IMG/VR virus record: IMGVR_UViG_3300046314_000297
Reading direction: 5' to 3' (one strand)
DNA: 64,000 nucleotides
Source: an uncultured virus (IMG/VR IMGVR_UViG_3300046314_000297)
Taxonomy: Duplodnaviria; Heunggongvirae; Uroviricota; Caudoviricetes
Shown: piece by piece, positions 20,840 through 59,857 of the stretch
How the letters are laid out: each line of letters begins with the position of its first letter
How positions within the stretch are numbered: the first letter of the stretch is position 1
The notes under the pieces: generated by a model
Told to the model about the DNA's origin: nothing
The model's database searches: none
What the model saw: only the letters and a program-made list of their open reading frames with translations
Program-made: the position numbers and the translations under genes

Positions 20840-23647
20840 CTATATTGCACAAATCCTATTTGATCCAGTCCCCATCACAACACCACCACATGCGGCACAG
20901 TTGCTTAGGGTGATATTATTACATGAACTAGTTGCCGTAGTTGCCGTAGTTGCCGTAGTTGCCGTAGTTGCCGTAGTTGCTGTAGTTGCTGCTGGTGACG
21001 ATAGGATAGTTCCTGATTGAACCCAGCCGGTAGTTCCGTAGAAGTTAGTTGCTCTAGAGAATGCCGAGAAATAGAATGCTGGAGAAGATGCATCATATGT
21101 TGTGACTGTATATGATGTAGAGGTATTCCCCGATGCCTTCGTCAGGTTGCTCGAAAGGACTGGTGTAGAAGTACTAGCGTTTATTATAGTTTCTACGCTA
21201 TCAGCGCCTGACCATCCACTAGCTGTTGCAGTTAGAGATGTACCAGCAACTCCAGTACCACTTAGAGATACAGAACCTCCAGTTGGTGCAGTGCCAGCGG
21301 TAGTGGTGATAACTCCAGATGATACCCATGCAGAGGTTCCACCATTATTAGTAGCTCTAGCATATGCTCGAAACTGTACTAGCGGAGGTAGTGCATCAGT
21401 ATTTATGATCGTGGTGCTAGTGGATGAAGTTCCTGTAGCTCTAGCAACACTAGATTCCGTTGGGGTACTAGTAGATGCTACAATCTTGATTTCATAGCTA
21501 TTTACATTGCCCCAGCCGCTTGTACTAGCGTATAGGGTAGATCCGACAGTACTACCGCCAGTAAGTGATACGGTACCACCAGATGGTACTGGTATAGGGT
21601 ATGACTTAATAATAGTGTCAGATCCTACCCATGCTGAAGTTCCGTTTGCATTTGTAGATCTTCCAAATGCGCGGAAGTAGTATGGAGGGTCTGCAGCATC
21701 TTCTGTAGTAATTGTGTACTGCACGGAGTTATACAGGCTACTTGCTTTGGTAATGTTGCCTTCTACTGGTGGATTGACAGTACTAGCTACAATCTTTGTC
21801 TCGTAAGAAAGAGGCGCGTTTCCCCAGTTGCTGGTGGTAGCCGTTAGTGTAGTTCCTGCCATACCAGTTCCAGAAATACCAGACTGACCTCCAGTAGGCG
21901 GTCCTAACGTAGTCAAGCTAACTGAAGCACTGCCCGATGGGTCGCTCAGTGTGACTGTATATGTGACGCCTGGAGTAAGTCCAGTTACAGTGTATTGCGT
22001 ATCTAAAGTTGCCCCCTCCAAGACTGTATAGTCTGTCTTAAAAACATTGTTTGCAGATACGCTGAAATATCGTTCGTAGCTAGAGATAGCTACTTGGAGT
22101 CTTACTTTTAAACTAGTAGTAGTTGCAGTCCCTGCAACTTCGCTGATACTGATAGCCCCTACCAGTGGTTGTGCAATTAGAATTGCGCTAGATGGGTACC
22201 AACCAGAGACACCATTAGCATTGGTAGCACGTACGAATGATCGATACCTGTTTGGCGGTGGATCAGTGTCAAGTTTGGTAATTTTGTATGATGCCTGAGA
22301 CTCTCCAGTGGCTACTATTGGACTGGACTCAGTAGGATCATAGCCATATGTAGATGTAATTTTTGTCTCGTAGGCAGTTGGATTATTAGTCCAGTTTTGA
22401 GCAAACGAAGTTATAGTCGAGCCAACCGTTGTATCTCCAACTAGGTTTATCTGACCTGGTGCAGACAAGGGTAAGGTAGTTGCAGTGGTAGTAGCATCTA
22501 CTTGCCCGTTGGCTAGAGTAAACGAGTACTCAACACTAGCGATCAATCCATTGAAAACAAAAGTCTCGTCAAAAGCTACATCTGCTGCTGCAGTATATGT
22601 AGCCGCATAGCTGAGTGGTAGTCCAGTTTGGCCATAATATAGGTCATATGTTACTTCGTATGGGTATACGGGTGCAGTCATATGTACCGAAATGCTGCTA
22701 CCGCTTAGTGGTGTAGCGGATATCTCGTGTAGGTTAGGTGGATTTCCCTGAGTAGTTACTGTAGCCGACGCTGGTTCTGAATTTCCGTACGCATTGGTAC
22801 GAATAACTTCTACCTTATATTTAGTTCCGTACTCTATGTTTCCGCTAAATGTTACTGGAGATTCGGCTGTAGATTCTCCAACAATCATTTCTGTATTAAA
22901 ATCTGTCAGAATTACGGTTGTAGAGGTTACTGGAGACCCACCGGTACCGCCTGCTGCAGCAAATGTAACTGTAACTGTATTATTGAGCGCCGTAAAACTT
23001 CCGATTGAGGCTTTTTCTGGAGCGGTATATACCGTTACTGATGAAGTCGGATCAGATAGCCCGGTAGTGCCCTCATTATTAGAGGACGCGGCCTTGACTG
23101 TATAAGTACTTCCGCCCTGCAACCCTGTTACCAATCCTGGAGATGTAGTGAAATACGCTACTGGACCGCTAGGAAAGGGAATTGCAAAGATAGTTACAGG
23201 TGGACTTCCCCCATCCGCAGGGGGAGTAAAGGGGAGGCTTATAGCGCCATCACCGTAAAATCTGCCAGGCTCGTTAGTTGGAGTCCCTAGTACCGGGATA
23301 GCCGGGATAGTCTTTACTTTTACTGCAGGTGATAAAGCTGACCATGGAGAAATGCCAGCAGCATTAATTGCTCGTATCTTGAACTGATAGGTTACGCCGC
23401 CAGTAAGGCTGCCAACCAGTATGGTCTCTCCCGGAGCGTATGTGTTTTGATACGACCCCGATGAGGAGACTATCTCGTAAGAAGTTGCTGGTGATCCGTT
23501 TGGATTAGGGGTATATGACAGCATCAACATTCCGTTGCCGAATGGTCTGCCGCTCACGTTTAGTGCGGTAACGTTGGTTGGTGCTTTAGGAGCAAGAAAT
23601 GATTTACTATTTTGAGAAGCCTCTACACCGTGGTGATGGTTTCTCAT
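20840..23647 (-). CDS. Large FN3/Ig-like repeat protein with Thr-rich linker and Cys-rich tip
   Basis: YQFKIRAINAAG and other FN3 strands; four repeats ending RA/ST-NxxG..W; (TAT)n; terminal 4-Cys segment. Confidence 0.8.
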   Translation of the reverse strand: MRNHHHGVEASQNSKSFLAPKAPTNVTALNVSGRPFGNGMLMLSYTPNPNGSPATSYEIVSSSGSYQNTYAPGETILVGSLTGGVTYQFKIRAINAAGISPWSALSPAVKVKTIPAIPVLGTPTNEPGRFYGDGAISLPFTPPADGGSPPVTIFAIPFPSGPVAYFTTSPGLVTGLQGGSTYTVKAASSNNEGTTGLSDPTSSVTVYTAPEKASIGSFTALNNTVTVTFAAAGGTGGSPVTSTTVILTDFNTEMIVGESTAESPVTFSGNIEYGTKYKVEVIRTNAYGNSEPASATVTTQGNPPNLHEISATPLSGSSISVHMTAPVYPYEVTYDLYYGQTGLPLSYAATYTAAADVAFDETFVFNGLIASVEYSFTLANGQVDATTTATTLPLSAPGQINLVGDTTVGSTITSFAQNWTNNPTAYETKITSTYGYDPTESSPIVATGESQASYKITKLDTDPPPNRYRSFVRATNANGVSGWYPSSAILIAQPLVGAISISEVAGTATTTSLKVRLQVAISSYERYFSVSANNVFKTDYTVLEGATLDTQYTVTGLTPGVTYTVTLSDPSGSASVSLTTLGPPTGGQSGISGTGMAGTTLTATTSNWGNAPLSYETKIVASTVNPPVEGNITKASSLYNSVQYTITTEDAADPPYYFRAFGRSTNANGTSAWVGSDTIIKSYPIPVPSGGTVSLTGGSTVGSTLYASTSGWGNVNSYEIKIVASTSTPTESSVARATGTSSTSTTIINTDALPPLVQFRAYARATNNGGTSAWVSSGVITTTAGTAPTGGSVSLSGTGVAGTSLTATASGWSGADSVETIINASTSTPVLSSNLTKASGNTSTSYTVTTYDASSPAFYFSAFSRATNFYGTTGWVQSGTILSSPAATTATTATTATTATTATTATSSCNNITLSNCAACGGVVMGTGSNRICAI
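20931..20984. repeat. 9-bp tandem repeat GTTGCCGTA (5 perfect + 1 degenerate copy) encoding (Thr-Ala-Thr)n
   Basis: Read directly from sequence. Confidence 0.95.
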
Positions 23648-24918
23648 TATGCGCTCAAATCACCGAGTAGTAGCCAAGTTCCGTTAGAGCGTTTAATTAG
23701 TGATGCGGATGACCAGCGATCACGTAGCTTAAGTCCTGGAGTTCCATACACTGAGACGCCAGAACCCGCCACTGATACTCCTCCAGTATTCACTCTTACA
23801 ATAGTAATTTGAGCACCAGTCATAAATACTGCGCCGCTAGGTACACTAATCACTACGTCCTGAGAGCTATTTACTTCGATGACCTTGCCATCATCCGAGG
23901 CAACTAGAGTATAGCTAGCTGTCTGAGCATTAAACTCTAGGTGAGAAACTATGTTTCCGTTAGCGCTTACGCTAGCTAGAACGGATGTCCCGGCTGGGCT
24001 CTGCCATTCCTGTATGTTTGCTGTGTTAGAGGACGCACCTTTAACAATCAATGCCTTAGCTGTAGACGAGGCAGCTGTAATAGTCTGCGTACCAACTAGA
24101 GATAGTGACGTACTCTGGTTAAACCCTATAGTTGATGTATTAACATTGAACGTAACTGGTGAAGTAGCAACTAAACCGCTAAGGCCTCCAGGTCCAGTTG
24201 GGCCCGTGGTGCCTGTTGGACCCGTCGGGCCATCTGACCCATTTATACCATTAGTACCGTTGGTGCCACTCGCTCCCGTAGGGCCAGTTGGTCCATCGTC
24301 ACCTTTGTCACCTGTGCGTACGAAGGTAATGTTCACATCTTGGCTGTTTGCCCAAGATGTCACGTTTCCGTCTAGGTAAGATATTGGCACTTCATAATAC
24401 GAGTCATGTGCGTAGTGATACCCAGTAATTGCATAATATACATAATTATCTGGATTACCAATTTCAGAAATTTTAAAGTGGCCCTTGATCGCGGAGCTAG
24501 AGTCATCAATTGTTTCCAAGTAAGCCTGAGCATCTGATGCATTGAAATCAAACCAGCTTATATAGAGCATGGTAGCTGTAGTTAGAGTGTTGTCAAATCC
24601 TAGGTTTCCCGATCCTGGATTGATATCTACAGTGCTAGTGATGTAGTTGTACTTGAACGTAGCTCCACCAAAGGTCCCCTGCGGCCCTACTGCTCCAGTT
24701 GGACCTGTTGGCCCCGTGACATTTGAAGCTGCACCTGTTGGTCCAGTTACACTAGGTCCGGTTGGCCCAGTTGCACCTGTACCGCCCTGTGGTCCGGTTG
24801 GTCCTAGTACAAAAGTAGTTAGTTTTACGTCCCAGGTAGCGCCATTCCAAACCCACGTACGATTATCATACGTAAATTCATCATTTACTGATGGAGAGTT
24901 TGGGAAATTGATGGCCAT
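23647..24918 (-). CDS. Collagen-like fibre: MAINFP N-module, G-X-T stalk, C-terminal '...LLGDL' domain
   Basis: MAINFPNSP...WVWNGATW; GPT repeats; QTASYTL..SDDGK...WLLLGDL. Confidence 0.85.
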   Translation of the reverse strand: MAINFPNSPSVNDEFTYDNRTWVWNGATWDVKLTTFVLGPTGPQGGTGATGPTGPSVTGPTGAASNVTGPTGPTGAVGPQGTFGGATFKYNYITSTVDINPGSGNLGFDNTLTTATMLYISWFDFNASDAQAYLETIDDSSSAIKGHFKISEIGNPDNYVYYAITGYHYAHDSYYEVPISYLDGNVTSWANSQDVNITFVRTGDKGDDGPTGPTGASGTNGTNGINGSDGPTGPTGTTGPTGPGGLSGLVATSPVTFNVNTSTIGFNQSTSLSLVGTQTITAASSTAKALIVKGASSNTANIQEWQSPAGTSVLASVSANGNIVSHLEFNAQTASYTLVASDDGKVIEVNSSQDVVISVPSGAVFMTGAQITIVRVNTGGVSVAGSGVSVYGTPGLKLRDRWSSASLIKRSNGTWLLLGDLSA

Positions 24919-24977: not shown

Positions 24978-25793
24978 CTATTTAGGGTAGCGGACTATTA
25001 CAATCCCTGAGCCGCCATTACCTCCAGCAGCAAATAGTGCACCTCCACCGCCACCGCCAGTATTAGTAGTACCAGATGTAGCCGGAATACCACCAGAGTA
25101 GTTATTACCGTTACCACCACCGCCATACCCACCTAAAGCGCCATAGCGACCGCCCGCTCCGCCACCAGCATAATAGACAGTACCCGAAACATTTTGTCCA
25201 GTAGTTGTAGCAAGGCCCCAGCTAGAGAATACCGCTGAGCCTATACCACCAGCTTGCCCGCCCGAGGTTCCACCAGCTCCTCCTCCACCACCATAGTTTC
25301 CTGGTGAACCTGCGTAACCTTGACCTGCTACCCCAGAACCTGGGCTGTGAATACTTCCTCCACCGCCAGAACCACCACTACCTGCAGAGAAGTAGTAATT
25401 ATCGCCAACACCGCCGCCAATAGCCTCAGCGCGTGAGCCCAGTCTGGAGTTAGTTCCATTCGTTCCTTGGCTAACGTTTCCATTAGACGGGATACCACCA
25501 CCACCAATAGTTACAGTATAGGTTCCGGTAGCCAAAGATACCGCTGGGTCAGATAGAAGTCCACCTGCTCCACCGCCACCATTCTGGTCATTACCACCGC
25601 CACCACCACCAGCTATAACAATCATGTCGGCAATAATACTTCCACCAGTTATTGATAGAGATCCGCTTGAAGTAAATACTATGTAGTTATAGCTAGCATC
25701 TGAGTACAATGTTCCGCCAGTGACTACTGGCTTAGGAATAATATCAAGCCAGCCTCTTGCAGATGCTGCACCCGCTGTTGAGAGTAGAGGCAT
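24978..25793 (-). CDS. Glycine-rich domain protein with MPLL N-peptide
   Basis: IAGGGGGG...GGGGAGG...YYAGGG...NTGGGGG...GGSGIVIVRY. Confidence 0.8.
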   Translation of the reverse strand: MPLLSTAGAASARGWLDIIPKPVVTGGTLYSDASYNYIVFTSSGSLSITGGSIIADMIVIAGGGGGGNDQNGGGGAGGLLSDPAVSLATGTYTVTIGGGGIPSNGNVSQGTNGTNSRLGSRAEAIGGGVGDNYYFSAGSGGSGGGGSIHSPGSGVAGQGYAGSPGNYGGGGGAGGTSGGQAGGIGSAVFSSWGLATTTGQNVSGTVYYAGGGAGGRYGALGGYGGGGNGNNYSGGIPATSGTTNTGGGGGGALFAAGGNGGSGIVIVRYPK

Positions 25794-25804: not shown

Positions 25805-29700
<3,896 letters not shown>

Positions 29701-29701
<1 letters not shown>

Positions 29702-42585: not shown

Positions 42586-42586
42586 A

Positions 42587-49901: not shown

Positions 49902-49910
49902 TTTTTCTCC

Positions 49911-50156: not shown

Positions 50157-51497
50157 TTAGAATGTGATTGAACCTGATGCGGTCCAAGTATAGATCTTGT
50201 ACCCATTAGTATAGTTTACCACAGGGTTTCCTGTTGTGGCTGTTGGATTTGCAAAGATGTCTGGGTAGCGGATAACTACTACACCAGAGCCACCAGCGCC
50301 ACCGGCAGCCTGATTATTACCTCCACCGCCAGAACCAGTTGTCATAATTGCAGACCCTGCAGCGCCACCGCTATTAGTACCGGCACCACCACCGCCAGAG
50401 CCACCAGCAGCAGAAGTATTGCTGCCTCCACCGCCACCGCCGGCTCTAATAGTAGCAAAACCAGTTATTGTGCTGGATATTCCTGAGCCTCCAGCGCCGC
50501 CTACTCCAGCAGAAGTGCCAGTTCCGTAGCCGTTTGCGCCTACTGCGCCTGCCCCACCGCCACCGCCTCCAGCGCCGTATGAGGTATTGTCAGTTCCTCC
50601 AGCGCCACCAGCAAATCCTTGCGCTGATGTCCCAGTACCACCAGCATCGGTGCGTCCAGAGGTTCCACCACCCGAGCCACCATTGCCACCAATCTTTACA
50701 TAACCAGCACCCGAGCCACCGCCGATAGATGTAATGCTTGAAAATACTGAGTTTGAACCAGCACCGCCATTTGCGTTGCTTGAACCGCCAGCGCCTCCTG
50801 CCCCAACTGTAACCGTGTATGCGGTTCCCGCAGATACTGAGAGTTGAGGCTCTGGCGATGAATTAGCCCCAGAAGTTCCAGCGTTAGTTCGATAACCACC
50901 AGCACCTCCTCCACCACCATGACCGGAACCGCCACCGGCACCACCAGCGACTACCAAATACTCAACAGTAGGAGTAGCGCCAGAACCAGAGGGAGCGAGC
51001 CTGTTAATACCGTAAAGAGAAGCTGTTGAATACTGCACGAAGTTGGCAGAACTTTGTAGCGTAAAAGAGAGGCTAGTGATAGCAGCAACGTTAGACCATA
51101 GTCCAGACACAAGCATGTCATATGCTGTAGTCCCGTTATTTTCTACAATTGTCTGAATCTCGTAGTTTTTATATGCAGCACTTGCGTAGTTAGGGATATA
51201 TACGCTAGACGTAGTGAACACGTTGGAGGTAGTACTAGTGCCGTTAACATCTCCAAAATAGTTAGGCACGCCATCTGAGTTTGAACTGGCTGTAGCGCCA
51301 TTGCCATAAAGTCGCCTATTGCTAAATCCAGTAGCATTGCCATTGAATGTTACGTAACTAGAAATCCCATTGCCGGTGAGGTCTGTCCTAGCAGAGATTA
51401 CTAAATATAAATCAGTATATACCTGAGGAATATTAGAAAAAATTATAGTAGAGGTACTAGCATTTAATGTCTGCGTAGAGATAAGTGTGTAACTCAT
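50157..51497 (-). CDS. Trio subunit C plus circularly permuted glycine-rich domain; paralogue of 30140..31477
   Basis: Start moved to ATG 51497 (ATGA overlap); IPQVYTDL, IPNY; ends YTWTASGSITF. Confidence 0.8.
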   Translation of the reverse strand: MSYTLISTQTLNASTSTIIFSNIPQVYTDLYLVISARTDLTGNGISSYVTFNGNATGFSNRRLYGNGATASSNSDGVPNYFGDVNGTSTTSNVFTTSSVYIPNYASAAYKNYEIQTIVENNGTTAYDMLVSGLWSNVAAITSLSFTLQSSANFVQYSTASLYGINRLAPSGSGATPTVEYLVVAGGAGGGSGHGGGGGAGGYRTNAGTSGANSSPEPQLSVSAGTAYTVTVGAGGAGGSSNANGGAGSNSVFSSITSIGGGSGAGYVKIGGNGGSGGGTSGRTDAGGTGTSAQGFAGGAGGTDNTSYGAGGGGGGAGAVGANGYGTGTSAGVGGAGGSGISSTITGFATIRAGGGGGGSNTSAAGGSGGGGAGTNSGGAAGSAIMTTGSGGGGNNQAAGGAGGSGVVVIRYPDIFANPTATTGNPVVNYTNGYKIYTWTASGSITF

Positions 51498-51997
51498 GCT
51501 AGAACTCCGTAAAGTGTGAAGGTAGAGCCAGCGGTGAATGATGCCCCACCTGTATACGTCGTCATAGATATTGAAGTGACGGGAGCCAACGACGTCCATT
51601 TTCCAACTTCAAGCACTTGAACTGAGTTTGGCTGAGTACTTACTACAATAAGTGTTTTTTGCTTATCCGAAGCCGAATATTCCATGATGTTAATCCTCTG
51701 AGTGTTCCACACATTGCTCGCTCCGGTGGCTCCGACTGAAGTAATTGGAATTAGGTTAGCGGAATTGCCTCCGAAAGCAGAAGAGTTATTGCCCACTAAG
51801 TCCACTCTAGAGTAGTTAGATCCTGAATCGCCGTTGAAATACATATAACCGTAGTCCTCTGTGTTTGAAGCAGTACTTCTGCTTGAGACGACTAATACTA
51901 GGTCAGCATACGTTTGTGGGACATTGCTGAATAGTACGGTAGGCGAGTCGACCGTCAGGGTGATTTTCCCTATTAAAGCTTGCGCATCGGACATCAT
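51494..51997 (-). CDS. Trio subunit B
   Basis: VPQTYADLVLV, FNGD, EYSASDKQKT, LYGVLA. Confidence 0.8.
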   Translation of the reverse strand: MMSDAQALIGKITLTVDSPTVLFSNVPQTYADLVLVVSSRSTASNTEDYGYMYFNGDSGSNYSRVDLVGNNSSAFGGNSANLIPITSVGATGASNVWNTQRINIMEYSASDKQKTLIVVSTQPNSVQVLEVGKWTSLAPVTSISMTTYTGGASFTAGSTFTLYGVLA

Positions 51998-53370
51998 TAA
52001 CCTCTAATCCCATATAGAGAGATACGTGAACCAGCAGCAAGTTGGCTGGTAACACCTGCATAACACTTTACAGTGAGACTAGTGACCGCGGCTGTCGATA
52101 CCCAAACGCCGGACCCTAAAGTAACTTGTTTTTTATACGAGTCCGTAGCACCGCTGATAGATCTAACTGTTTTATACTTTGAGGTATTCGCAAAGTCGTA
52201 GATGTCCGCAATGATGACGCCATAATTTCCTGAAGAATAATTTACGTCTGGAGTATTGATAGAGATATTCACGCCAGGGAAGTTTGTTGATTGAAACTTA
52301 CCCGAGCTAGCGCTGGTTCCGTCACTAGTAAGCCAGTGTGAGTTGTAGTTGGTATACGTAGTGTCTGCGTTGAAACTTATAGCTACGTTATCGCCTCCAG
52401 CGTTTCCAGTATTACGTGGAGTAATACGAAGCTGTAAATGCTTATATTGGCTAGCCGGGAGTCCTGCAAAAGTAACTGAAGTCTGCGCCGAGGTAAGTCT
52501 AACTGTTCCAATAAGTTCGAAGATGTCAGTGCTAGCTGTGATTGCTTCCTTAGCATATCGTACAACAACAATACCGGAGCCGCCGTTGCCACCACCGCCT
52601 CCCCAAGCGCCTACGGTGTTGTTACCGCCACCACCATTACCGCCGTTACCAGACCAAGCCGCTGCTGATGCTCCAGCTTCTTGTCCGCTAGCGCTTCCGC
52701 CATCGCCGCCCGTGGCATAGGTGCTTGAAGTTCCAGAAATGGTACTGGTTGCTCCTGCACCCCCGCTCTGCCCGCTTGCTGCAGCAGTTTTACCACCGCC
52801 ACCAGCGCCAACGCGGCTGGAAGTTCCCGCAGACTGAAAACCTGCATTACCTTCGCCGGAAATACCTGTACCAGCTAGAGCGCTGTAACCACCGTTACCA
52901 CCACCAGAACCACCATTACCACCAGCAGAGCCGGCACCATTAGCACCTCCACCTCCACCAGTAGTTGAAAAACTTGAAATGCTTGAAGATCCACCTGAAG
53001 GAGATGCGCCATCTGCTGACCCTGTTGCAGCAGGGTTGCCTGGACCACCGGCTCCAACTAGAACTGACAAAGAGCCGGTCAGTGTAGTTGCCACTACTTT
53101 CATACCACCAGCTCCACCACCACCACCACCGCGAGCTGAACCAAAGCCAGGGCCACCGCCACCGCCTCCAGATATTAATAATATGTCTGCAGTCAATGAA
53201 CCGCCAGAAACTGATAGCGTTCCGCTAGTTAGAAAAGTTCTGTAATAGTAAGTCGAGTCCTCGGATAGGTTTCCACCAGAAACTACGGGTGCGATTGTAG
53301 TACCAGTAGATATATTTCGATATCTGATTGGAGCAGCTATGTTGCTCTTGCTCATTCTATTTACGGTCAT
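51997..53370 (-). CDS. Glycine-rich domain plus trio subunit A domain
   Basis: Gly-rich N-half; FELIGT...YKHLQLR...SLYGIRG. Confidence 0.8.
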   Translation of the reverse strand: MTVNRMSKSNIAAPIRYRNISTGTTIAPVVSGGNLSEDSTYYYRTFLTSGTLSVSGGSLTADILLISGGGGGGPGFGSARGGGGGGAGGMKVVATTLTGSLSVLVGAGGPGNPAATGSADGASPSGGSSSISSFSTTGGGGGANGAGSAGGNGGSGGGNGGYSALAGTGISGEGNAGFQSAGTSSRVGAGGGGKTAAASGQSGGAGATSTISGTSSTYATGGDGGSASGQEAGASAAAWSGNGGNGGGGNNTVGAWGGGGGNGGSGIVVVRYAKEAITASTDIFELIGTVRLTSAQTSVTFAGLPASQYKHLQLRITPRNTGNAGGDNVAISFNADTTYTNYNSHWLTSDGTSASSGKFQSTNFPGVNISINTPDVNYSSGNYGVIIADIYDFANTSKYKTVRSISGATDSYKKQVTLGSGVWVSTAAVTSLTVKCYAGVTSQLAAGSRISLYGIRG

Positions 53371-53376
53371 AGGTCT

Positions 53377-53385
53377 ATTTTACCT
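53377..53385 (-). promoter_or_regulatory. Cassette promoter AGGTAAAAT(AGAC), leaderless
   Basis: TAAAAT lies 6 nt upstream of ATG 53370. Confidence 0.6.
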
Positions 53386-54677
53386 TACGCGTAACGGATT
53401 ATGACGACCCCGGAACCACCAGCAGCACCAGAATACCCGCCACCACCACCAGACCCAGTGTTTGCACTTGCAGCTGTTCCAGCTACCTGTGGGGAATACT
53501 TGCCACCAGACCCACCGCCAGCAGTGCCAGATCCGCCAGTGCCGGTATTGTAGACACTACCACCACCACCACCAGCGTAGTAGTTATTAGATCCAGTACT
53601 AGTTGCCGAAGCCCATGATGTGTGTGTGGTCAGTCCGGCTCCACCGTCTCCACCGACCGAGGTCGTGCCGTTAACGCCGACAGCGCCAGCACCGCCACCG
53701 CCACCGCCGCCATATGCTCCACCGGTTTCGTTCGCTGCACCACCGGCATAGCCTTGCCCCGCTGTTCCAGCGCCAAAAAGGTCTCCAGAACCAGAGCCAC
53801 CGCCAGAACCACCAGAGGTACCAGCGATATTATTATTACCACCACCACCACCACCGCCAACTGCGATGAATGAGTTAAGAGATGAGTTGCCACCAGTCCC
53901 GCCAGCGGCACCGCCAGAAGCATAGTTTGCGCCTGCGCCGCCTGCGCCTACAACTACAGAATATGCTGCTGAAGCTGTCAAGGTTTGAGTGTTTGCAATA
54001 AAACCACCAGCTCCACCGCCACCAGCAATTTCAGAACCGCCACCGCCACCGCCAGCAATAATAAGGGTTTCGGCCGAAAGCGTAGTTGACGGTGTAAAGG
54101 TTCCTGAAGACTTGAAAACATGATAAGTGTATGCACCAGTCTGGTATATATCTCCCCCAGTTGCCTTAGCAGCCTTGCCGCCAAATGGCACTTTTGAGAT
54201 GCCGTAAAGAGTTGCGGTTGAATACTGCACGAAGTTGGCGTTTAAACTTAATGAGGTAATGGCTGATGTATTTGACCACAGCCCAGCGCCAATTAAGCCT
54301 AAGAATGCTGTGCCATTGTTTTCAGCAGTAACGTCCCAGGAAAGGACTTTACTATTACTGCCTGCGTAGGCTGTAATGTCAAGTTGCATATTACCGAACT
54401 TGCTGGCGGTTGAGCCATTTCCATTAGTCCATAGCTCAATTGCAGAATAACTTGTAGATACCGGGGTTGAGCCAGTTGTATACAAATACCTTTCAGTTTG
54501 GTTTGTAGATGCGCCATTAATCGAAAGAAGAACTGTTTGGTAAGCTCCAGCACCATCGCTAGTTCTGCCGCTAAGAACAAGCTTAAGGTCAGTATAGATT
54601 TGAGGAATCGAGTTAAACTGAATTGATGACGCACCACCAGCACCTACAGTAACTTCTGCAATCTTTGTCATGCTCAT
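53385..54677 (-). CDS. Trio subunit C plus glycine-rich domain
   Basis: IPQIYTDL; ATGG...YTYHVFKSSG...GGSGVVIIRYA. Confidence 0.8.
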   Translation of the reverse strand: MSMTKIAEVTVGAGGASSIQFNSIPQIYTDLKLVLSGRTSDGAGAYQTVLLSINGASTNQTERYLYTTGSTPVSTSYSAIELWTNGNGSTASKFGNMQLDITAYAGSNSKVLSWDVTAENNGTAFLGLIGAGLWSNTSAITSLSLNANFVQYSTATLYGISKVPFGGKAAKATGGDIYQTGAYTYHVFKSSGTFTPSTTLSAETLIIAGGGGGGSEIAGGGGAGGFIANTQTLTASAAYSVVVGAGGAGANYASGGAAGGTGGNSSLNSFIAVGGGGGGGNNNIAGTSGGSGGGSGSGDLFGAGTAGQGYAGGAANETGGAYGGGGGGGAGAVGVNGTTSVGGDGGAGLTTHTSWASATSTGSNNYYAGGGGGSVYNTGTGGSGTAGGGSGGKYSPQVAGTAASANTGSGGGGGYSGAAGGSGVVIIRYA

Positions 54678-55168
54678 GCTAGAACTCCATAAAGTGTAAA
54701 TGTTGAGCCTGGTAAGTAGTCTCCGCTAGTTCCCGAAATGTAAAATTGCAAACTAGTGATTGCTGCCGTCGAAGCCCACCTAGACGCATAGGCGCTTACT
54801 GGATTGTAGCTGCTGCCTGCTCTAACCAGAAAAGTTTTATGCTTGTCTGTTTGTGTGTAGTCAAATATCTGCATAGTAGAAGTAATTATCGTGCTTGTGG
54901 AAGTGCCAGGCGCTGCATAATATAGAGAGTTTGTAGTGGCAGTTCCAGACACAGCGGAGCTGCCACTACCGTCCATGTATACAAGCGATATGTTGCCAGA
55001 GTCGCCATTTGGGTACAGGTGAGACTGCTTATCATTCGTGCTGTTATGCATGACACTGATTACAAGAACGAGGTCCCTATAATTTTGTGGGATATTGGCA
55101 AAGGTCACGCCGGAGGCATTTGCACTTAGAGTAATATTTGCAATTGCTTGCATTGCTGGAGCGGCCAT
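54674..55168 (-). CDS. Trio subunit B
   Basis: IPQNYRDLVLV, DYTQTDKHKT, LYGVLA. Confidence 0.8.
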   Translation of the reverse strand: MAAPAMQAIANITLSANASGVTFANIPQNYRDLVLVISVMHNSTNDKQSHLYPNGDSGNISLVYMDGSGSSAVSGTATTNSLYYAAPGTSTSTIITSTMQIFDYTQTDKHKTFLVRAGSSYNPVSAYASRWASTAAITSLQFYISGTSGDYLPGSTFTLYGVLA

Positions 55169-55761
55169 TATTTAGCACCATATAGAGAGAAACGTGTACC
55201 AGAGGCTAAAGACGATCCGCCATACCCAGATAGAGTTATTGATGAGATTGCAGCAGTTGACGACCAGGAGCCAGAGCGCAAAACGATATAATTTGCGGAC
55301 TGAGCCATGCCAGTTAAGCTTTTAACGGTTTTATTCTTTACAGTTGAAAATGAGTCAAGAATGTCGATAATTGCAGCTCCAAAAGCGTAAGCAGCTCCTG
55401 TAGAACCTGGTGCTTCGCCGATAGTCATCGATGTCTGTGCACTAGTATTTCCAGAAGCTAAAGCAGAGCTCCCGTTGCCATATAGCAAATGAGTCCAATA
55501 AGTTGCTCCCGTGTCATTATTAAAATTGATAGAAATATTTGAATCTGCTACAGCCTGAGTAGTTCTAGCAATTGCACGGATTTGAAGATGCTTATACTGA
55601 CTGTACTCCTGCAAATTAGCAAATGTGACTGAGGTTTGTGGCGAGGCAATAACCTGTGAAGTAATCAGCTCGAAGTCGCTAACTTGACCGTTACCGGCAG
55701 CAGCATTAGAGTATTTAATCCAGTTGTTGATACTGGAGTTTGCAAGAGAGTAGATGCCCAT
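55168..55761 (-). CDS. Trio subunit A without glycine-rich domain
   Basis: FELITS...YKHLQIR...SLYGAK. Confidence 0.8.
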   Translation of the reverse strand: MGIYSLANSSINNWIKYSNAAAGNGQVSDFELITSQVIASPQTSVTFANLQEYSQYKHLQIRAIARTTQAVADSNISINFNNDTGATYWTHLLYGNGSSALASGNTSAQTSMTIGEAPGSTGAAYAFGAAIIDILDSFSTVKNKTVKSLTGMAQSANYIVLRSGSWSSTAAISSITLSGYGGSSLASGTRFSLYGAK

Positions 55762-55772: not shown

Positions 55773-56105
55773 CTAAGCGATTTCAGAACCGAAGATGTTG
55801 ATGCTAAAGTTCGAGCTTGAAGTGTAGACGGTCACGATATCAGTTGCTGCAAGTGTAATACCCAGAGTCAGAGTGGTCGAGTCAGAAGCTGCAACTGGAA
55901 CATCATACGCAAGGTACTGAGCATTAGTCAAGGTAGCACCTGCTACGCGCACGGCAAGACGAAAAGACCCCACTCCTGTGGCACGATTAGCAATCACGAT
56001 GGTGGAAATGACTGCGGATTTTCCAGCACCGACAGTGTAGATGTCAGTAGCTGTAGTCGCTCCAGGAGCAGACTGTGCTAGAACTTTATATGTTGCGGTC
56101 GCCAT
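55773..56105 (-). CDS. Small adaptor-like protein (MATATYKVLAQ type)
   Basis: Aligns end to end with 45492..45821. Confidence 0.75.
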   Translation of the reverse strand: MATATYKVLAQSAPGATTATDIYTVGAGKSAVISTIVIANRATGVGSFRLAVRVAGATLTNAQYLAYDVPVAASDSTTLTLGITLAATDIVTVYTSSSNFSINIFGSEIA

Positions 56106-56108
56106 GCT

Positions 56109-56513
56109 TTATGCACCCATCAGTAGGAATGAACTAATTACTTCGCCACCACTTGCAGCGGCACCATTTACCCAATTTGTACCGTCGTAGGTTAGGGTCT
56201 GACCTGTAGCTGCAGATGTGATGACTACGTCTGTCAAAGAGTCTAGGTTAGTAGTGGCTACGCCGTTTACCCAGGCAGTTCCGTTGTACTTGATAACATC
56301 GCCAGTAGTTGCGCTAGTTACCGTAACGTCAGTTAGGTCATCAATTGTTTGACCTGGTTTGAAATATGCAAGTGAAGTCCACGTAGTTACACCATTTCCA
56401 AGCTTTAGCTTGTTGGTATCGCTCTCGACTACTAGCTCTCCAGACGCAATCACTGGGTTAGCAGCAGTCCACTCAGCCGCGGTTCCGCGTCTTAGTTGAA
56501 TTTGTACTGCCAT
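56109..56513 (-). CDS. Mtd_N-like domain, two LTDV repeats, FLLMGA tail
   Basis: IQLRRGTAAEWTAANPVIASGE; LTDV...G..(I/L).Y.GT.WVNG twice. Confidence 0.8.
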   Translation of the reverse strand: MAVQIQLRRGTAAEWTAANPVIASGELVVESDTNKLKLGNGVTTWTSLAYFKPGQTIDDLTDVTVTSATTGDVIKYNGTAWVNGVATTNLDSLTDVVITSAATGQTLTYDGTNWVNGAAASGGEVISSFLLMGA

Positions 56514-57130
56514 TAGAAGCTACCTACATTTCCGCCGTCAAGTGGTGAGATACCGCCATAAATACTTGATGGGGTTCCTCCATCTATGTTACCATACGGT
56601 GCACCTGCCAAACCAGTAGGCCCTGTTATAGAGGCCCCTGCTGCACCAGTTGCACCTTGTACCCCCGTTGCGCCTGTTAGACCTGCCGTACCGGCTGGAC
56701 CTGTAGGACCTGTTGCACCATTTACGCCAATAGTTCCATTAGTTCCAGCTGGGCCAGTTGGTCCAGTAACACCTTGAATACCCTGAGTGCCTGTTGGACC
56801 TGTAACAGATGGTCCAGTTGGGCCAACACCACCCTGAGGCCCTGTTGGGCCTGCATCGTTTTTTACTGGCTCGATCCAATATGAATCGTAATAGATGTAG
56901 GTTGCACCCTCGGTTGAGTTAAACCAAACATCGCCAGCGGTTGGGTTTGTAGGAGGTGTATCTGAGATTGTGTATGAGCCACCGCCACCTTGTAGGGGTT
57001 CCCAGACTGTACCGTTATAGACGTATACAGTTGACTCGTCTGTTCTAAAAAAGAGATCGCCAGTTCGACCTACCGACGGGTTAGTTACTCCGGTCGGTAG
57101 GCCTACTGGTGTTAAAAACTTTTTTGACAA
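56513..57130 (-). CDS. Short collagen-like protein with [10 protein letters not shown] tail
   Basis: GAGGA RBS, TTG start; GDVWFN module; GPT repeats. Confidence 0.8.
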
Positions 57131-57160: not shown

Positions 57161-59179
57161 TTAGCCAATGATTACAACTTGGTAGCTGTTTGCAGCTACT
57201 GTTGTTGCTGCGACCCAGGAGAGGGTTACAGTGCTAGTGTTGGTACGCTCGATGTCAACCTCGACCTCTTCAAATCCAGCTAGGTCATAAACTTGAACTA
57301 GAACGGTACGAATACCTAGGTTGTGAGATACGGTCCAAGTGACAACATCGCTTGAAGGAACTAGCTCGGCGTTTGTCTCGGTGAACTTAGTAGTTGCACC
57401 AAGGTTTGCGCGAGCGCCAGCAGCAGTTGAAGCACCGGTACCACCATCTGCTACAGCAATGTCAGTGCCATTCCAAACACCAGTAGTGACTGTTCCAAGG
57501 GTGGTAATCGAAGTCTGACCAACATAGTTTTCGCTAATGTCAACACTGTCAGCATTTACGTGAATTCGGTCAGTGGTGCCGATTACGTCAAGCTGATTTC
57601 CAGTTTTGGTAATGCCAGCGCCTGCAACAATCTGGGCTGCACCAGAGAACTGAACCCAGTCCTGGTCAGCAAAGCTGGTTAGGTAAGTATTGCCCTGAGT
57701 CCAAGCTGACTGCCCGTAGGTAGTTCCTTCTTGGACGAATACAGTTGCACCCTTTAGTTCGGTGTATACGTCTGAATCTGTAGGACGTGTAAGGGTATAT
57801 GCGGTTCCGTTGTCCGCGTAAACATAGATACCGTTTTCGGTGTCTGTTGTCTGAGCGGTCAGCAAGATGCGGTAGCCAACATGCGTAGAGTCTAGAGATG
57901 CGTGACTATCGATTACTAAAGTGTCAGTATCGCCAGTCAAAGCAACGTTAGAAGTTGCAAGCAAGTGTACTGCTGGCTTCCAAGTTAGACCTGCAACAGC
58001 ATTATCAACGTATGCCTTGTTAGCTGCATCACTTGGGTCAGTCGGAGTTCCGAGGTTAGTGACCTTGTATCCGTCAGCGTCGAGGTCAGCACCAAGTGAG
58101 CTGGTAGCTCCAAGGACCTTGTTGGTTAGAGTCTGAACCTCGGTGGTACCAACGATCTCGCCCACACCGTGAGTAGAGGTGTCCGAGGCGTGGTCCGAAA
58201 GAATGCCGTCAGCATAGCCCTTAGTTGCAGCGTCTGAGTCAACCGCTGGAAGGCCTAGGTCTGTAATGGTGTTGCCATTAGCATCTACATCAGCACTAAG
58301 AACTGTGCCAGTGCCTAGAGTCTTGTTGGTTAGAGTCTGAGCGTCAGTGTCTCCAACAACGTTTCCAGTAACGCCATGAGCAGAGGTGTCACTAATGTGA
58401 GTTGACAGGTCTCCTGCAACAGTAGATACGTCGCTAGCTACAGAGGCAATTCGGTCAGTAATGGTATTACCAGTCGAACCGTTTACAGTGTTGTCACCAA
58501 TATAGGAGTCAAGTCTGCCCTGAGTGATAATCTCGTTGCTGGTGGTGACCGAGCCCTTGTACACATTTCCATCAGCATTTAAAACAATGTCGCCATTGGC
58601 TGAAGTAATGTTTACGTCTTGATTGGCAGAGATATTGATGTCATTGCCGGCTGTAGACGTAATGTTAAGGGCAGAGTCCTCGAAAATGTTACCGGCAGTC
58701 TGAACTACAATCTCATTCGCTGTGATCTGTCCAGCTGCAAAGTTTCCGCTACTGTCGCGCTTTACAACCGTGTCTGGAGTGTTAGTAGAGGTAGCAGAGC
58801 CACCAACAGCAGCAATTGCACGCTCATTGGTAAAGTACATAGTGCCCGAGCTAGTCGTGGCATTAGGGTCTTCGGCTAGATCTGCAGTAGTTGAGTCAGC
58901 AACGCCGTTCTCAGCAACGAAGCTGTAGGTTCCAGTGTTGGTGTCAAATGAAACAGTGATGTTTGTTTGAGTGCCGGTGGTTAGCGCAGTCTGTAGCTCG
59001 GCTGCAGTGGTATACGTGATCCACGCGGAACCATCGTACTGGCGTAGGTGGCCCAGTGCGGTGTCAAAGTAGATCTGACCAGTTCTTGGACTAGCCGGAG
59101 CATTGGCTAGGTTCTGGATGCGTGCATTTAGAAGCTCATTCTTATTAAGATTGAGCGACGTTAAGTAATTACGTGCCAT
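57161..59179 (-). CDS. Fibre-like virion structural protein
   Basis: DAA(T/N)K.Y(A/V)D repeats, QTLTNK repeats, GGTGASTAAGARANLG, C-terminal WTVSHNLG. Confidence 0.75.
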   Translation of the reverse strand: MARNYLTSLNLNKNELLNARIQNLANAPASPRTGQIYFDTALGHLRQYDGSAWITYTTAAELQTALTTGTQTNITVSFDTNTGTYSFVAENGVADSTTADLAEDPNATTSSGTMYFTNERAIAAVGGSATSTNTPDTVVKRDSSGNFAAGQITANEIVVQTAGNIFEDSALNITSTAGNDINISANQDVNITSANGDIVLNADGNVYKGSVTTSNEIITQGRLDSYIGDNTVNGSTGNTITDRIASVASDVSTVAGDLSTHISDTSAHGVTGNVVGDTDAQTLTNKTLGTGTVLSADVDANGNTITDLGLPAVDSDAATKGYADGILSDHASDTSTHGVGEIVGTTEVQTLTNKVLGATSSLGADLDADGYKVTNLGTPTDPSDAANKAYVDNAVAGLTWKPAVHLLATSNVALTGDTDTLVIDSHASLDSTHVGYRILLTAQTTDTENGIYVYADNGTAYTLTRPTDSDVYTELKGATVFVQEGTTYGQSAWTQGNTYLTSFADQDWVQFSGAAQIVAGAGITKTGNQLDVIGTTDRIHVNADSVDISENYVGQTSITTLGTVTTGVWNGTDIAVADGGTGASTAAGARANLGATTKFTETNAELVPSSDVVTWTVSHNLGIRTVLVQVYDLAGFEEVEVDIERTNTSTVTLSWVAATTVAANSYQVVIIG

Positions 59180-59189: not shown

Positions 59190-59498
59190 TTATGAGAGAT
59201 GAGCTTTTCCAGAAATTGGAGCTGAAAAAGTTATTGTTAGGGATTTATTGTTGATGTGGTTTACATCCCCTTCGCACTGCGTTTCGCCACTGTCATAAAC
59301 AGTAACTGCAGGGAAGAAGTCTAGGTTGTGTACAACTGTCCAGGTCTGAAGTGCAGATATTTGGCGGTGAACGTAGGCAACCAGAGTAGGAATACTTTCG
59401 GCACCAAGACCCGCGGGGCCTTGAGGGCCAGGAGCTGAGACTGTTACAGTCTGCGCATACTTTCCAGTTACAACTTTGTTAGGTGCATCACTAGCCAT
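59190..59498 (-). CDS. Small virion protein with W.V.HNL domain
   Basis: GPQGPAG; WTVVHNLDFFPAVTVYD resembles the C-terminus of 57161..59179. Confidence 0.7.
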   Translation of the reverse strand: MASDAPNKVVTGKYAQTVTVSAPGPQGPAGLGAESIPTLVAYVHRQISALQTWTVVHNLDFFPAVTVYDSGETQCEGDVNHINNKSLTITFSAPISGKAHLS

Positions 59499-59857
59499 TA
59501 TCTAGTCACCTGTGCTTTCACGGCAAAGTTTCCCTGTACCAATCGGTATACATACTCACTGGAGCTAATAAGTTCTAGGTCATATACATATTTATCTGCT
59601 GGAATGACGGCAGTCTCTTGGCTAGTAGCCTTGATAGTTATGCTGCCATCTGTTGCGCCAAGCTCAATATGCCCATTATCAGTGGTGAACTCAGCAACTA
59701 CAGTCTCGCTAGATACTGAAGTTCGGATCTGGAGACGAGCCGAGTAGCCACCCAATTTAATTGGTTTGTTAGCCGGATCTTTCCAAAGAATGATTCGCTC
59801 TAAAGCTGAACCCTGAGTAGCTACGATATTATATAGACCTGCTATATAATGGGTCAT
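59498..59857 (-). CDS. Small beta-sandwich virion protein (BppU_N-like); paralogue of 29701..30063
   Basis: YNIVATQGS...ARLQIR...YVYDLEL...LVQGNF.V..QVTR. Confidence 0.7.
   Translation of the reverse strand: MTHYIAGLYNIVATQGSALERIILWKDPANKPIKLGGYSARLQIRTSVSSETVVAEFTTDNGHIELGATDGSITIKATSQETAVIPADKYVYDLELISSSEYVYRLVQGNFAVKAQVTR

Follow-up and report, generated by a model that had tools for sequence, protein, structure and literature searches.

The window, by which we mean the whole 64,000-nucleotide stretch of uncultured phage DNA analysed here, carries a minus-strand block of 38 genes (g01 to g38), whose frames are all open, closely packed and mostly overlap-coupled. The initial annotation had called this a 38-gene fibre kit; the block is real, but it need not consist of fibre genes throughout (g13, g14, g22 and g38 differ). 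Homology to paralogues places the likely true starts of g12, g27 and g28 at 51497, 36058 and 35027, respectively, and with these corrections the odd overlaps with neighbouring genes vanish. The block contains Pfam Collagen, Mtd_N, Gly_rich_2 (10 genes), Laminin_G_3 and fn3 modules together with tail-fibre PHROGs, and the FP.SP start module is matched by HMM in the expected seven genes (g15, g17, g20, g21, g25, g29 and g37). The parts are as follows, where P is phrog_1084, Y the YK.L.Q connector, K the putative KFA/KYA docking domain, G the Gly-rich tip domain, X a jelly-roll domain and D a domain recognised by alignment.

g01, 59498..59857, minus: P (phrog_1084, E 3e-21), 37.5% identical to g34; may act as proximal anchor or as assembly factor for the collagen-start gene overlapping its stop
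g02, 59190..59498, minus: short, GPQGPAG collagen start and C-terminal domain (phrog_30556)
g03, 57161..59179, minus: fibre-like, 672 aa (phrog_2647, phrog_30390, phrog_1640); homologue at the kit start of the relative G002
g04, 56513..57130, minus: stalk, collagen segment (Collagen 35 bits) and GAPYGN[LI]DGG tail; TAATG overlap with g05
g05, 56109..56513, minus: Mtd_N start, two short repeats, ...SSFLLMGA tail (class LMGA)
g06, 55773..56105, minus: connector Y, main clade by tree, 110-aa jelly roll (phrog_1276; model pLDDT 92.9)
g07, 55168..55761, minus: connector-type N-peptide and X jelly roll (translation, HMM)
g08, 54674..55168, minus: X alone
g09, 53385..54677, minus: X and G (Gly_rich_2 75 bits)
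g10, 51997..53370, minus: connector-type N-peptide (like P0019 and P0020), G and X
g11, 51494..51997, minus: X alone
g12, 50157..51497, minus: X, G and ...YTWTASGSITF end; start moved to an internal Met; 45.6% identical to g33
g13 and g14, 49545..50147, minus: small accessory genes closing tip cassettes (g14 phrog_7759, E 4e-41); candidate fibre chaperones, with look-alikes following tip genes in other loci
g15, 46902..49505, minus: FP.SP start, long collagen stalk (Collagen 122.7 bits), C-terminal D (alignment)
g16, 46162..46905, minus: Gly-rich tip (Gly_rich_2), MSPFM start
g17, 45830..46162, minus: FP.SP start, short collagen, ...NYIHPFFTV tail (class PFF)
g18, 45492..45821, minus: connector Y, g18 clade by tree (phrog_1276)
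g19, 43867..45492, minus: connector-type N-peptide, G and Laminin_G_3 tip (Gly_rich_2 74.6 bits; Laminin_G_3 73.4 bits)
g20, 42587..43864, minus: FP.SP start, D fused directly to G (Pfam/HMM, D alignment)
g21, 42031..42594, minus: FP.SP start, unknown domain, ...ADILLGA end (translation, HMM)
g22, 39025..42030, minus: 1001-aa virion structural protein (phrog_5838, 1090 bits; 174 phage records), also present in T4-like cyanophages
g23, 38485..39012, minus: putative K (phrog_5906)
g24, 36929..38485, minus: MPVL plug, G and Laminin_G_3 tip (Pfam)
g25, 36421..36867, minus: FP.SP start, collagen, ...IAMSIIFGG tail (class FGG)
g26, 36058..36417, minus: connector Y, clade III by tree (MANPNIV)
g27, 35030..36058, minus: tip with fibrinogen-C-like stretch (Fibrinogen_C 26.2 bits, residues 63-103 only); start corrected
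g28, 34227..35027, minus: second tip after g26 (phrog_10356), start corrected; the G002 homologue has a Laminin_G-like HMM match
g29, 33950..34186, minus: FP.SP start, short collagen, GAPYGNLDGG... tail (HMM, translation)
g30, 33378..33950, minus: Mtd_N (59.9 bits) and K
g31, 31959..33368, minus: MPFL plug (disordered in the model), G and X; matches Pam3 gp24
g32, 31474..31956, minus: X alone
g33, 30140..31477, minus: X, G and ...YTWTASGSITF end
g34, 29701..30063, minus: second P protein (PHROG match)
g35, 25805..29701, minus: 1298-aa collagen stalk (Collagen 279.7 bits), K at the end
g36, 24978..25793, minus: MPLL plug and G tip (Gly_rich_2 66.3 bits)
g37, 23647..24918, minus: FP.SP start, collagen, D (Pfam, HMM, D alignment)
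g38, 20840..23647, minus: 935-aa fibronectin-III-like repeats (fn3 59 bits), Thr/Ala repeat near the end; 9-nt tandem repeat at 20911-21000

Along these tail-fibre genes, particular protein ends keep occurring together with particular starts of the protein that follows, and all five observations of the initial annotation are borne out on the 38 translations. Paralogues in the window are only 25-50% identical, and their repeats are therefore old duplications rather than independent events, so that the chance test rests on other phages. There, the adjacency enrichment proposed earlier as a check holds for four junction types (K, Y, DGG/Mtd_N and P), although many of the compared loci are kin to each other and the counts given below are not independent events. 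Inherited synteny could also yield conserved adjacency.

The K domain (about 134 aa, 45-60% identical) is common to g35, g30 and g23, which end in ...SKFA, ...VKFA and ...TKYA, and each is followed by a Gly_rich_2 gene: g36 (MPLLS), g31 (MPFLG) and g24 (MPVLQ). Of 21 unique proteins with K, 20 have it at the C-terminus. The opening M(S)P[LIVFR][LWVF], sought as a regular expression, is found in 16 of 17 genes after K versus 4 of 1234 other ORFs. Thirteen other IMG/VR loci extend beyond K, and in all of them the next gene begins M(S)P..., about 10 nt later; 11 of these genes have a G domain by HMM and one is Gly-rich without an HMM match. The post-K gene of locus L005 bears the same N-peptide, but on an X domain. 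The second junction is formed by the GAPYGN[LI]DGG... tails of g29 and g04, which run through a TAATG overlap into the Mtd_N genes g30 and g05 (54.3 bits in the latter); a DGG tail lies directly before an Mtd_N gene in 10 of 14 cases, eight of them with a stop/start overlap. In all 11 other loci, the P gene overlaps the start of its downstream neighbour, which is a collagen-start gene in nine of them.

The Y junction is tripartite. Genes g18 and g06 (50% identical) lie directly after g17 (...HPFFTV) and g05 (...SSFLLMGA) and before g19 and g07, both of which have an S...S.I....[RK]Y....AG N-peptide; likewise, g25 (...IAMSIIFGG) leads to g26 (MANPNIV) and then to g27 and g28. Y is an 8-strand jelly roll in its predicted model (pLDDT 92.9). 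Its best fold matches, the trimeric cement protein 7dou (Z 9.7) and Ena spore-appendage subunits (Z 8.6-8.8), are generic jelly rolls. Of the unique Y genes, 76 have an ORF upstream within the locus; this ORF ends within -10 to +40 nt in 63, and a hydrophobic ...G[AGMY] tail (regular expression) is present on 51 of the 63 versus 5 of 810 control C-termini; seven of the 12 missed by the expression are visible variants. The downstream ORF adjoins Y in 75 of the 76 cases having one, 47 of them via a 1-nt overlap. The S...S.I N-peptide is present in g19 and g07, but among 75 genes that follow Y only 4 have its strict form, S...S.I....[KR][YH], versus 5 of 1128 controls, and the N-peptides downstream of Y fall into several classes. 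An exception is g10, which has a Y-type N-peptide yet is preceded by g09 and not by a Y gene.

Tail class (FGG, MGAY, PFF, HPFLL or LMGA) tracks Y clade, which is what cognate pairs would predict. On a tree with clade supports of 0.84-0.99, and in raw counts that ignore kinship, clade III has an FGG tail upstream in 3/4 cases, clade II a GAY tail in 4/5, the g18 clade a PFF tail in 2/2, the MPQ clade an HPFLL tail in 5/5 and the main clade an xxG[AGM] tail in 43/47. Three such matched pairs lie in the window, and in 11 of 13 contigs with at least two Y genes all of the Y genes come from different clades.

In the g31 model (pLDDT 90.3, with plug residues 1-18 below 50), the G domain matches the cyanophage Pam3 fibre gp24 (Z 15.4, rmsd 2.6, 179 aligned, 28% identity) and the Bxb1 tail tip (Z 14.6), while the fold matches of X are weak (Z 6-7). 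Pam3 gp24 is described as a fibre of the virion that forms trimers and recognises the host through its TNF-like and Gly-rich domains (PMC9608196). Of 17 G+X homologues of g31, chosen by eye from the 120 listed, 10 start with a K-type plug and 7 with a Y-type plug: the same tip body is found with both.

We consider it likely (probability about 0.7) that this block supplies a large contractile-tailed phage with its receptor-binding genes, as a multi-chain kit with three joint types and clade-specific connectors. It would encode some 8 or 9 separate fibre chains, each of several polypeptides joined in gene order. A chain would start with the FP.SP N-module, or with a P protein and then a collagen-start gene, and run on as a trimeric collagen-like stalk to one of three joints: a globular K domain that takes the flexible M(S)P-L-L peptide with which the following protein begins; a ...DGG... 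tail and then an Mtd_N domain; or a short hydrophobic ...LMGA-type tail held by a separate 100-120-aa Y jelly roll, which would in turn carry one or several tip proteins by their N-peptides. The tips would comprise Pam3-gp24-like TNF-like and Gly-rich receptor-binding domains, X jelly rolls and lectin-like or fibrinogen-like domains. The anchor, stalk, socket and tip chains proposed earlier thus gain partial support from the adjacencies, the tracking of tail by clade, natural fusions and plug swaps, with binding between the proteins as a prediction. The analysis establishes the modules with their folds and places in the proteins, the adjacencies, the tie of tail class to Y clade and the fusions; mutual binding of the conserved ends, stoichiometry and virion presence of all the proteins are what we infer.

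It is possible, but unlikely, that Y is instead a chaperone acting on the hydrophobic C-terminus of the stalk, like Tfa, T4 gp38 or Pam3 gp25, and is absent from the mature virion, with the tips attached otherwise. A fibre chaperone is typically encoded immediately after its fibre, of which it folds the C-terminal part, T4 gp38 is required for gp37 folding (PMC3004832), and Pam3 gp25, which has a beta-sandwich domain, is reported as not detected in virions (PMC9608196); Y is likewise a small beta-sandwich right after a stalk. Family profile searches, however, found no Tfa-like family match for Y, and the usual chaperone place after the tips is taken by other small genes (g13-like, g14-like, phrog_7759). 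Moreover, Y is found joined to plug+X or plug+G (P0001-P0004), as the N-terminus of long tips (e.g. P0164) and as the C-terminus of longer proteins (P0233, P0236, P0242, P0247), which fits an integral domain more readily than a chaperone that is released, and its fold relatives in S-SCSM1, S-TIM5, MaMV-DC and phiPsal1 are annotated as virion (structural) proteins.

Less probable still is that the conserved gene ends serve mainly as linkers in recombination, for stalk and tip swaps, and that adjacency reflects inherited cassettes without specific docking. The sole long non-low-complexity DNA repeat between paralogues does cover both DGG-tail/Mtd_N junctions (33802-34064 versus 56365-56627, 70% identity), the same tip body is found with either plug, and the fibre region of a cultured relative sits in a hypervariable genomic island (PMC10202952). 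What is conserved is nonetheless protein sequence, in loci whose proteins share only 50-70% identity and among paralogues that are 25-50% identical; a plug disordered in the model and a K domain at the protein end are the pattern expected of docking elements; and a linker role, itself compatible with docking, does not require tail class to track Y clade. That much of the block lies outside the virion, as spare or decaying paralogues or in another role such as surface modification, is very improbable: ten Gly-rich genes plus nine X domains make a large set for a single particle, but the frames are open, packed and coupled, the modules match tail-fibre families, and G matches a fibre protein found in Pam3 virions by mass spectrometry (PMC9608196).

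Many other freshwater phages show the matched-joint pattern. The same joints are present in G002 (95 kb, about 99% complete), whose 502-aa ORF we take to be a tail sheath from its N-terminal motif, and in two cultured actinophages, phiPsal1 and E7; a WhiB gene suggests an actinobacterial host. The initial annotation knew of no description of this pairing logic, but precedents exist. T4 long fibres are built of several chains (PMC3004832), and in Klebsiella phages the docking (branching) domain of one receptor-binding protein has been shown experimentally to pair with a conserved N-terminal peptide of the next (PMC13352976). The principle is already known from these two cases. In this phage, the conserved joints probably let the parts (stalks, small connectors and host-binding tips) assemble in the order of their genes, and if distinct Y clades accept distinct tail classes, three connector joints could share one virion without cross-assembly.

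Thirty-eight tightly packed ORFs (g01–g38 in transcription order) fill the minus strand of the window between positions 20840 and 59857. Neighbours mostly overlap by 1–4 nt or lie no more than 15 nt apart, with gaps of 30–76 nt solely after g03, g14, g24, g28, g33 and g36. Promoter and terminator scans of the block returned no more sites than shuffled sequence, and none marking the borders of the chains proposed below. The flanking genes encode a family-A DNA polymerase, a helicase, a primase, exonucleases, a WhiB-like regulator, glycosyltransferases and a ribonucleotide reductase; such gene content marks the phage as large, and WhiB suggests that it infects Actinobacteria. Megablast found no match to 24 kb of the block among phage records. 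The block shows synteny to the collagen-rich region of Actinomycetia phage DSL-LC01. The IMG/VR entry of the window is a 47-kb fragment (28% complete by CheckV). A near relative, G002 (95 kb, ~99% complete), carries a 502-aa ORF which we take, from its N-terminal motif alone, to be the tail sheath, and on that reading the group would be contractile-tailed. Three glycosyltransferase genes adjoin the fibre block (window 12358–14485 and 19416–20345), and the corresponding position in DSL-LC01 is taken by glycosyltransferases and a UDP-galactopyranose mutase; the enzymes beside the block may modify the host surface or add sugars to virion proteins. Far from the block and on the opposite strand, a further tail-fibre-like ORF (window 3–1829, plus strand; phrog_18345 and phrog_19195) runs off the window start. 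The DNA polymerase ORF (window 2504–5030) aligns to PHROG profile positions 663–1235 only and a homing-endonuclease gene follows it; this may be a split polymerase. Near the 3′ end of g38, a 9-nt tandem repeat in seven copies (window 20911–21000) encodes a Thr/Ala repeat just before the Cys-rich end.

The block is built from nine recurring modules, for which HMMs were made from the window's own paralogues.

Recurring modules of the fibre block
A: FP.SP N-terminal module
M: Mtd_N
K: KFA (or KYA) domain
G: Gly-rich domain
X: ~165-aa domain with the end ...LYG
Y: small YK.L.Q protein
L: lectin-like domain
P: phrog_1084
T: ...YTWTASGSITF end

Because these paralogues are only 25–50% identical, and hence old duplications, recurrences within the window cannot be counted as independent. 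Pfam Collagen (PF01391) is above cut-off in g04, g15, g35 and g37 and below it in g25 (25.1 bits; cut-off 27.2). Mtd_N (PF18454) covers residues 5–43 of g05 (54.3 bits) and g30 (59.9 bits; curated cut-off 26.3) and is N-terminal in 14/14 proteins of other loci. Gly_rich_2 (PF21722) is found in ten genes (g09, g10, g12, g16, g19, g20, g24, g31, g33 and g36; 42–76.9 bits, cut-off 24.3), Laminin_G_3 in g19 and g24, a short fibrinogen-C stretch in g27 and fn3 in g38. Tail-fibre families were matched among PHROGs, and g22 belongs to phrog_5838, 'virion structural protein' (1090 bits); other matches are phrog_1084 (g01/g34), phrog_1276 (g06/g18), phrog_5906 (g23/g30) and phrog_7759 (g14). NCBIfam named none of 11 tested proteins, no usable match came from PDB sequence searches, whether queried with the K, G and X profiles or with g14 and g34, and the ESM Atlas returned only unannotated viral clusters for K and X. 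A reading of the D domain (the C-terminal domain of g15 and g37, also in g20) as a diverged K was dropped (hhalign probability 2.3%).

The initial annotation had reported five recurrent motifs or pairings: a KFA domain before an MP-x-L start, a DGG tail before an Mtd_N gene, a hydrophobic tail before a YK.L.Q protein and then a shared N-peptide, an FGG end before a MANPNIV protein, and an FP.SP start common to several genes. All are in the sequence as described. The adjacency enrichment in other phages that it proposed as a check was found for the K/plug, tail/Y and DGG/Mtd_N pairs, by counts among IMG/VR loci (15 containing a K domain, 79 containing a Y gene; 95 non-self loci overall) in which ORFs were called on the strand of the match and annotated with the module HMMs. 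In 13/13 other loci with downstream sequence, K ends the protein (...[KR]FA) and the next gene follows ~10 nt on, starting M(S)P[LIVR][LW], a peptide we call the plug. The HMM finds G in eleven of these next genes; of the other two, one is rich in glycine but has no HMM match, and one (locus L005) bears the same N-peptide on an X domain. Across all loci the plug regular expression hits 16/17 unique proteins after K against 4/1234 others.

The second joint involves Y, a stand-alone small protein in these loci (81/81 matches start within 25 residues of the N-terminus), where the M and A modules are likewise invariably N-terminal. An upstream ORF is present in the locus for 76 of the 80 unique Y proteins, and in 63 of these it ends −10 to +40 nt from Y. 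A hydrophobic run closing in G[AGMY] terminates 51 of the 63, with seven more visible variants, as against 5/810 control C-termini. The ORF downstream of Y is adjacent in 75/76 cases and overlaps by 1 nt in 47. The N-peptide (S...S.I....-type) said to follow Y is present in g07 and g19, but as a strict regular expression it is rare after Y elsewhere (4/75). A connector-type N-peptide (MTVNRMSKSNIAAPIRYRN) also begins g10 (window 51997–53370), yet the gene before it is g09, not a Y gene; a single connector may serve more than one tip, or else the rule admits exceptions.

In a tree of 83 Y proteins (clade local supports 0.84–0.99), tail class follows Y clade.

Upstream tail classes by Y clade (clade members with an adjacent upstream ORF; counts without correction for shared ancestry)
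Clade III (M.APNIVNV..., 119–135 aa): tail ...AM..[IV]FGG, 3/4
Clade II (MATT[TS]K.LARTAAATS, 100–106 aa): tail ...MGAY, 4/5
g18 clade: tail ...NYIHPFF, 2/2
MPQ[TA]HKVLGQ clade: tail ...HPFLL..., 5/5
Main clade: tail of ...[LM]G[AGM] type, 43/47

Three of the classes are represented in the window by one pair each (g05/g06, g17/g18 and g25/g26), and in 11/13 contigs with at least two Y genes all the Y proteins come from different clades. Docking pairs that exclude one another would be expected to give such a pattern.

Two further joints were counted. DGG lies in the last ~35 residues of the gene before an Mtd_N-start gene in 10/14 unique cases, eight with a stop/start overlap; in the window, the TAATG overlap noted by the initial annotation is present at both gene pairs. 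A joint absent from that annotation involves P: in 11/11 unique cases the phrog_1084 gene runs into the start of the gene after it, which begins with a short strand-like N-peptide followed in 9/11 by a collagen run, a pattern that g01–g02 and g34–g35 fit in the window. The conserved gene ends could also serve as recombination linkers, a possibility consistent with a 263-nt DNA repeat of 70% identity (window 33802–34064 and 56365–56627) that spans both DGG-tail/Mtd_N junctions and is the sole long non-low-complexity DNA repeat between paralogues. A linker role is compatible with docking, and it leaves the class matching of tails and Y clades unexplained.

The modules also occur in fused and swapped forms. 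There are rare natural fusions of Y to plug+X or plug+G (proteins P0001–P0004); among the best 150 family representatives, Y also occurs in tandem pairs, C-terminally in longer proteins and N-terminally on long tips; and g20 is the D domain of g15/g37 fused directly to G, which after g15 is a separate gene. Through these fusions, stalk, connector and tip become parts of a single physical chain. The peptides themselves change places: 17 relatives of g31 with the same G+X body, chosen by eye from the best 120, carry a K-type plug start in ten cases (MPFLGVAG..., MPILETWAN...) and a Y-type N-peptide in seven (M..NR.SK.S....KYRN..AGN). Both families are large (8596 representative clusters for Y at E ≤ 0.001; more than 2600 relatives of the g31-type tip at E ≤ 1e-10), their members being nearly all unannotated and from uncultured water phages. 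A hidden Y at the N-terminus of g22, prompted by the g21 end ...ILLGA, was considered and dropped (hhalign probability 0.05%).

The notion that Y could be a chaperone for the stalk C-terminus is opposed both by the Y fusions and by separate chaperone-like genes. Searches of Y, g13 and g14 for known fibre chaperones (Tfa, gp38, Pam3 gp25) gave no Pfam or NCBIfam match; g14 had no PDB sequence match, and the Y fold matches generic jelly rolls. Tip cassettes are regularly closed by g14-like genes (MAHFAE.D.NN..., phrog_7759) and helical, g13-like small genes. Standing after tip genes, at the usual fibre-chaperone position, they are candidate chaperones; neither family matched a known one.

g13/g14-like genes (also in loci L004, L006 and L009)
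Window, 49545–50147
Window, 20588–20797
G002, 29036–29386
G002, 33576–33809
Pontimonas phage phiPsal1 (L103), 6239–6619
'Ca. Planktophila' phage E7 (L104), 8657–9264

Structure prediction gives Y as an eight-strand jelly roll (pLDDT 92.9; 60-sequence alignment). Among known folds it is closest to a trimeric cement protein of a phage (7dou; Z 9.7, rmsd 2.9, 103 aligned), with a turret protein from an archaeal virus and spore-appendage (Ena) subunits (Z 8.6–8.8) also among the best matches; none is clearly above generic jelly rolls. Polyubiquitin matches in a PDB profile search, which were sums of weak repeats (~14 bits per unit) and contradict the jelly-roll model, were rejected. Relatives of Y in BFVD are mostly uncharacterised ~110-aa phage proteins; a few carry the database label virion (structural) protein (S-SCSM1, S-TIM5, MaMV-DC), and some lie inside proteins labelled 'tail fiber-like' (S-CAM1, P-SSM2). 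For S-SCSM1, the phage's paper reports 45 proteins detected in virions. The g31 model (33 sequences) has a pLDDT of 90.3, falling below 50 over plug residues 1–18. Its G domain (residues 34–294) resembles Pam3 gp24 (7ypx_A; Z 15.4, rmsd 2.6, 179 aligned, 28% identity) and the Bxb1 tail tip (9d93_Qa; Z 14.6), with 28–30% identity over ~180 residues for both and a Foldseek E-value of 5.8e-5, and more weakly the ALK glycine-rich domain (Z 7.0). On this model, G has the TNF-like plus glycine-rich fold of receptor-binding tips, in which beta-sandwich strands run into a glycine-rich loop lattice. An 8.5-kb gene of DSL-LC01 (L001 12688–21249) that ends in a g22-like region is annotated 'ALK tyrosine kinase receptor', a name that probably stems from glycine-rich domains akin by fold to that of ALK. 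The X domain gave weak jelly-roll matches (Z 5.5–7.0) to Pgp3, Caprin-2 C1q, collagen VIII NC1, Cbln1 and GITRL, mixed with GH32 beta-sandwiches (Z 6.6–7.3; the query was a 469-residue model).

The pairing observation is confirmed and generalises beyond the window; our best reading of it, a probable one, is ordered assembly by docking. Seven chains would open with an A module and two with P and a collagen-start gene; each would proceed as a collagen-like trimeric stalk and end in a K, DGG or hydrophobic-tail joint that would hold the next polypeptide. The modules, their positions and adjacencies, the class matching and the fusions are seen directly in the data, and binding, stoichiometry and presence in virions are inferred.

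Proposed chains (arrows, order of attachment; brackets, genes grouped at one step)
g04 → g05 → g06 → (g07, g08, g09; g10, g11, g12)
g15 → g16
g17 → g18 → g19
g20
g21 → g22 → g23 → g24
g25 → g26 → (g27, g28)
g29 → g30 → (g31, g32, g33)
g34 → g35 → g36
g37 → g38

Up to three plug-bearing tip genes follow one Y gene (three in phage E7, two in the window). Complete runs of X genes in other loci number 3, 6 or 9 in 15/21 cases, four in three and one in three. The occurrence of X genes in threes, taken with the weak C1q/TNF-like fold likeness, suggests heterotrimeric heads. Three such triplets lie in the window (g07–g09 and g10–g12, 50157–55761; g31–g33, 30140–33368) and one in phage E7 (L104 7051–8647). 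In its fullest form, to which we give roughly three chances in ten, the scheme becomes a combinatorial clip system: Y and the hydrophobic tails would form at least five mutually exclusive peptide-connector pairs, one trimeric connector might hold up to three different tips, the X genes in threes might build heterotrimeric C1q-like tips, and one virion would show many different receptor-binding heads, with tips exchangeable between phages and the stalk untouched.

The initial annotation knew of no described system with this pairing logic. The principle is in fact known, from T4 and from Klebsiella podophages, but searches of the open literature on Gly_rich_2/PF21722 and on fibre connectors found no description of the tail/connector joint. 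For phages KP32, K11 and KP34, the receptor-binding protein (RBP) study describes an RBP1 branching domain and a conserved RBP2 docking peptide as experimentally specific partners; loss of either element abolishes assembly, and tips can be swapped (PMC13352976). The K/plug joint has the same layout, a C-terminal domain and then a conserved N-peptide on the next gene, disordered in our model; binding between the two is putative. The Klebsiella proteins, however, are depolymerase tailspikes, whereas the tips here are Gly-rich or jelly-roll domains on longer chains (up to about six polypeptides) with a separate connector protein. No family in the profile libraries scanned ties these modules to tailspikes, and family profiles (Pfam, PHROGs) gave no match in the 38 proteins pointing to KP32-type anchor or branching domains. 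The T4 long fibre is described as gp34, gp35, gp36 and gp37 from genes that lie together (PMC3004832). The likeness is in several different polypeptides from clustered genes with a small protein at the joint (gp35 and gp36 in T4); here, by contrast, stalks resemble collagen, a 110-aa jelly roll, putatively recognised by a hydrophobic tail of six to eight residues, would act as connector, and one genome holds several matched connector classes. None of the T4 gp34–gp38 families is among the Pfam matches of the 38 proteins or their listed PHROG matches (the best five per protein for some).

In S16-type phages (T2/S16 gp38), a glycine-rich adhesin caps the fibre end. Pam3 gp24 is likened to S16 gp38 in the Pam3 paper, which reports it as a trimeric fibre found in virions by mass spectrometry and as the only fibre protein, attached straight onto the baseplate via an N-terminal helical bundle (PMC9608196). 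In the block studied here, the tip domain of Pam3 gp24 (7YPX) and Bxb1 chain Q (9D93) instead carries short plug peptides, is often fused to X or lectin-like domains and would sit on multi-chain stalks. Y also resembles the small jelly rolls of the Bacillus endospore appendages, Ena1B (7A02, Z 8.8) and Ena3A (8PDZ, Z 8.6), and the ExsF/anchor-peptide complex (9H3D) is a weak Foldseek match (E 1.2e-2). On Ena/ExsF-type jelly rolls, terminal peptides of neighbouring subunits or collagen-like filaments dock. This likeness is at the level of fold, with scores near those of unrelated jelly rolls, no sequence relation and a different biology. The docking principle is not new; the set of parts differs, comprising collagen stalks, a stand-alone jelly-roll connector, several matched classes and Pam3-like, plug-bearing tips.

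The tail/connector joint is present in two cultured systems, which makes the idea directly testable. In phiPsal1, an 86-aa protein ending ...ALMLMGG is followed by Y ('putative virion structural protein'), a 298-aa plug+G ORF and a g14-like gene; for the plug+G ORF (L103 5343–6239), GenBank has only a shorter version (locus 5530–6003). In phage E7, a 559-aa protein ending ...FMLMGA precedes Y and three plug-bearing tips (G+T, G+T and X), after which come two more X genes and then g13-like and g14-like genes. Should the joints prove to be true docking pairs, a large fraction of hypothetical fibre genes could be read by rule: the order in which proteins attach to one another, the end that carries the host-binding tip and the points at which tips can be swapped. 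Such a rule, if true, would aid host-range prediction for phages of abundant freshwater Actinobacteria and would offer compact, mutually exclusive peptide-domain pairs for phage fibre engineering.
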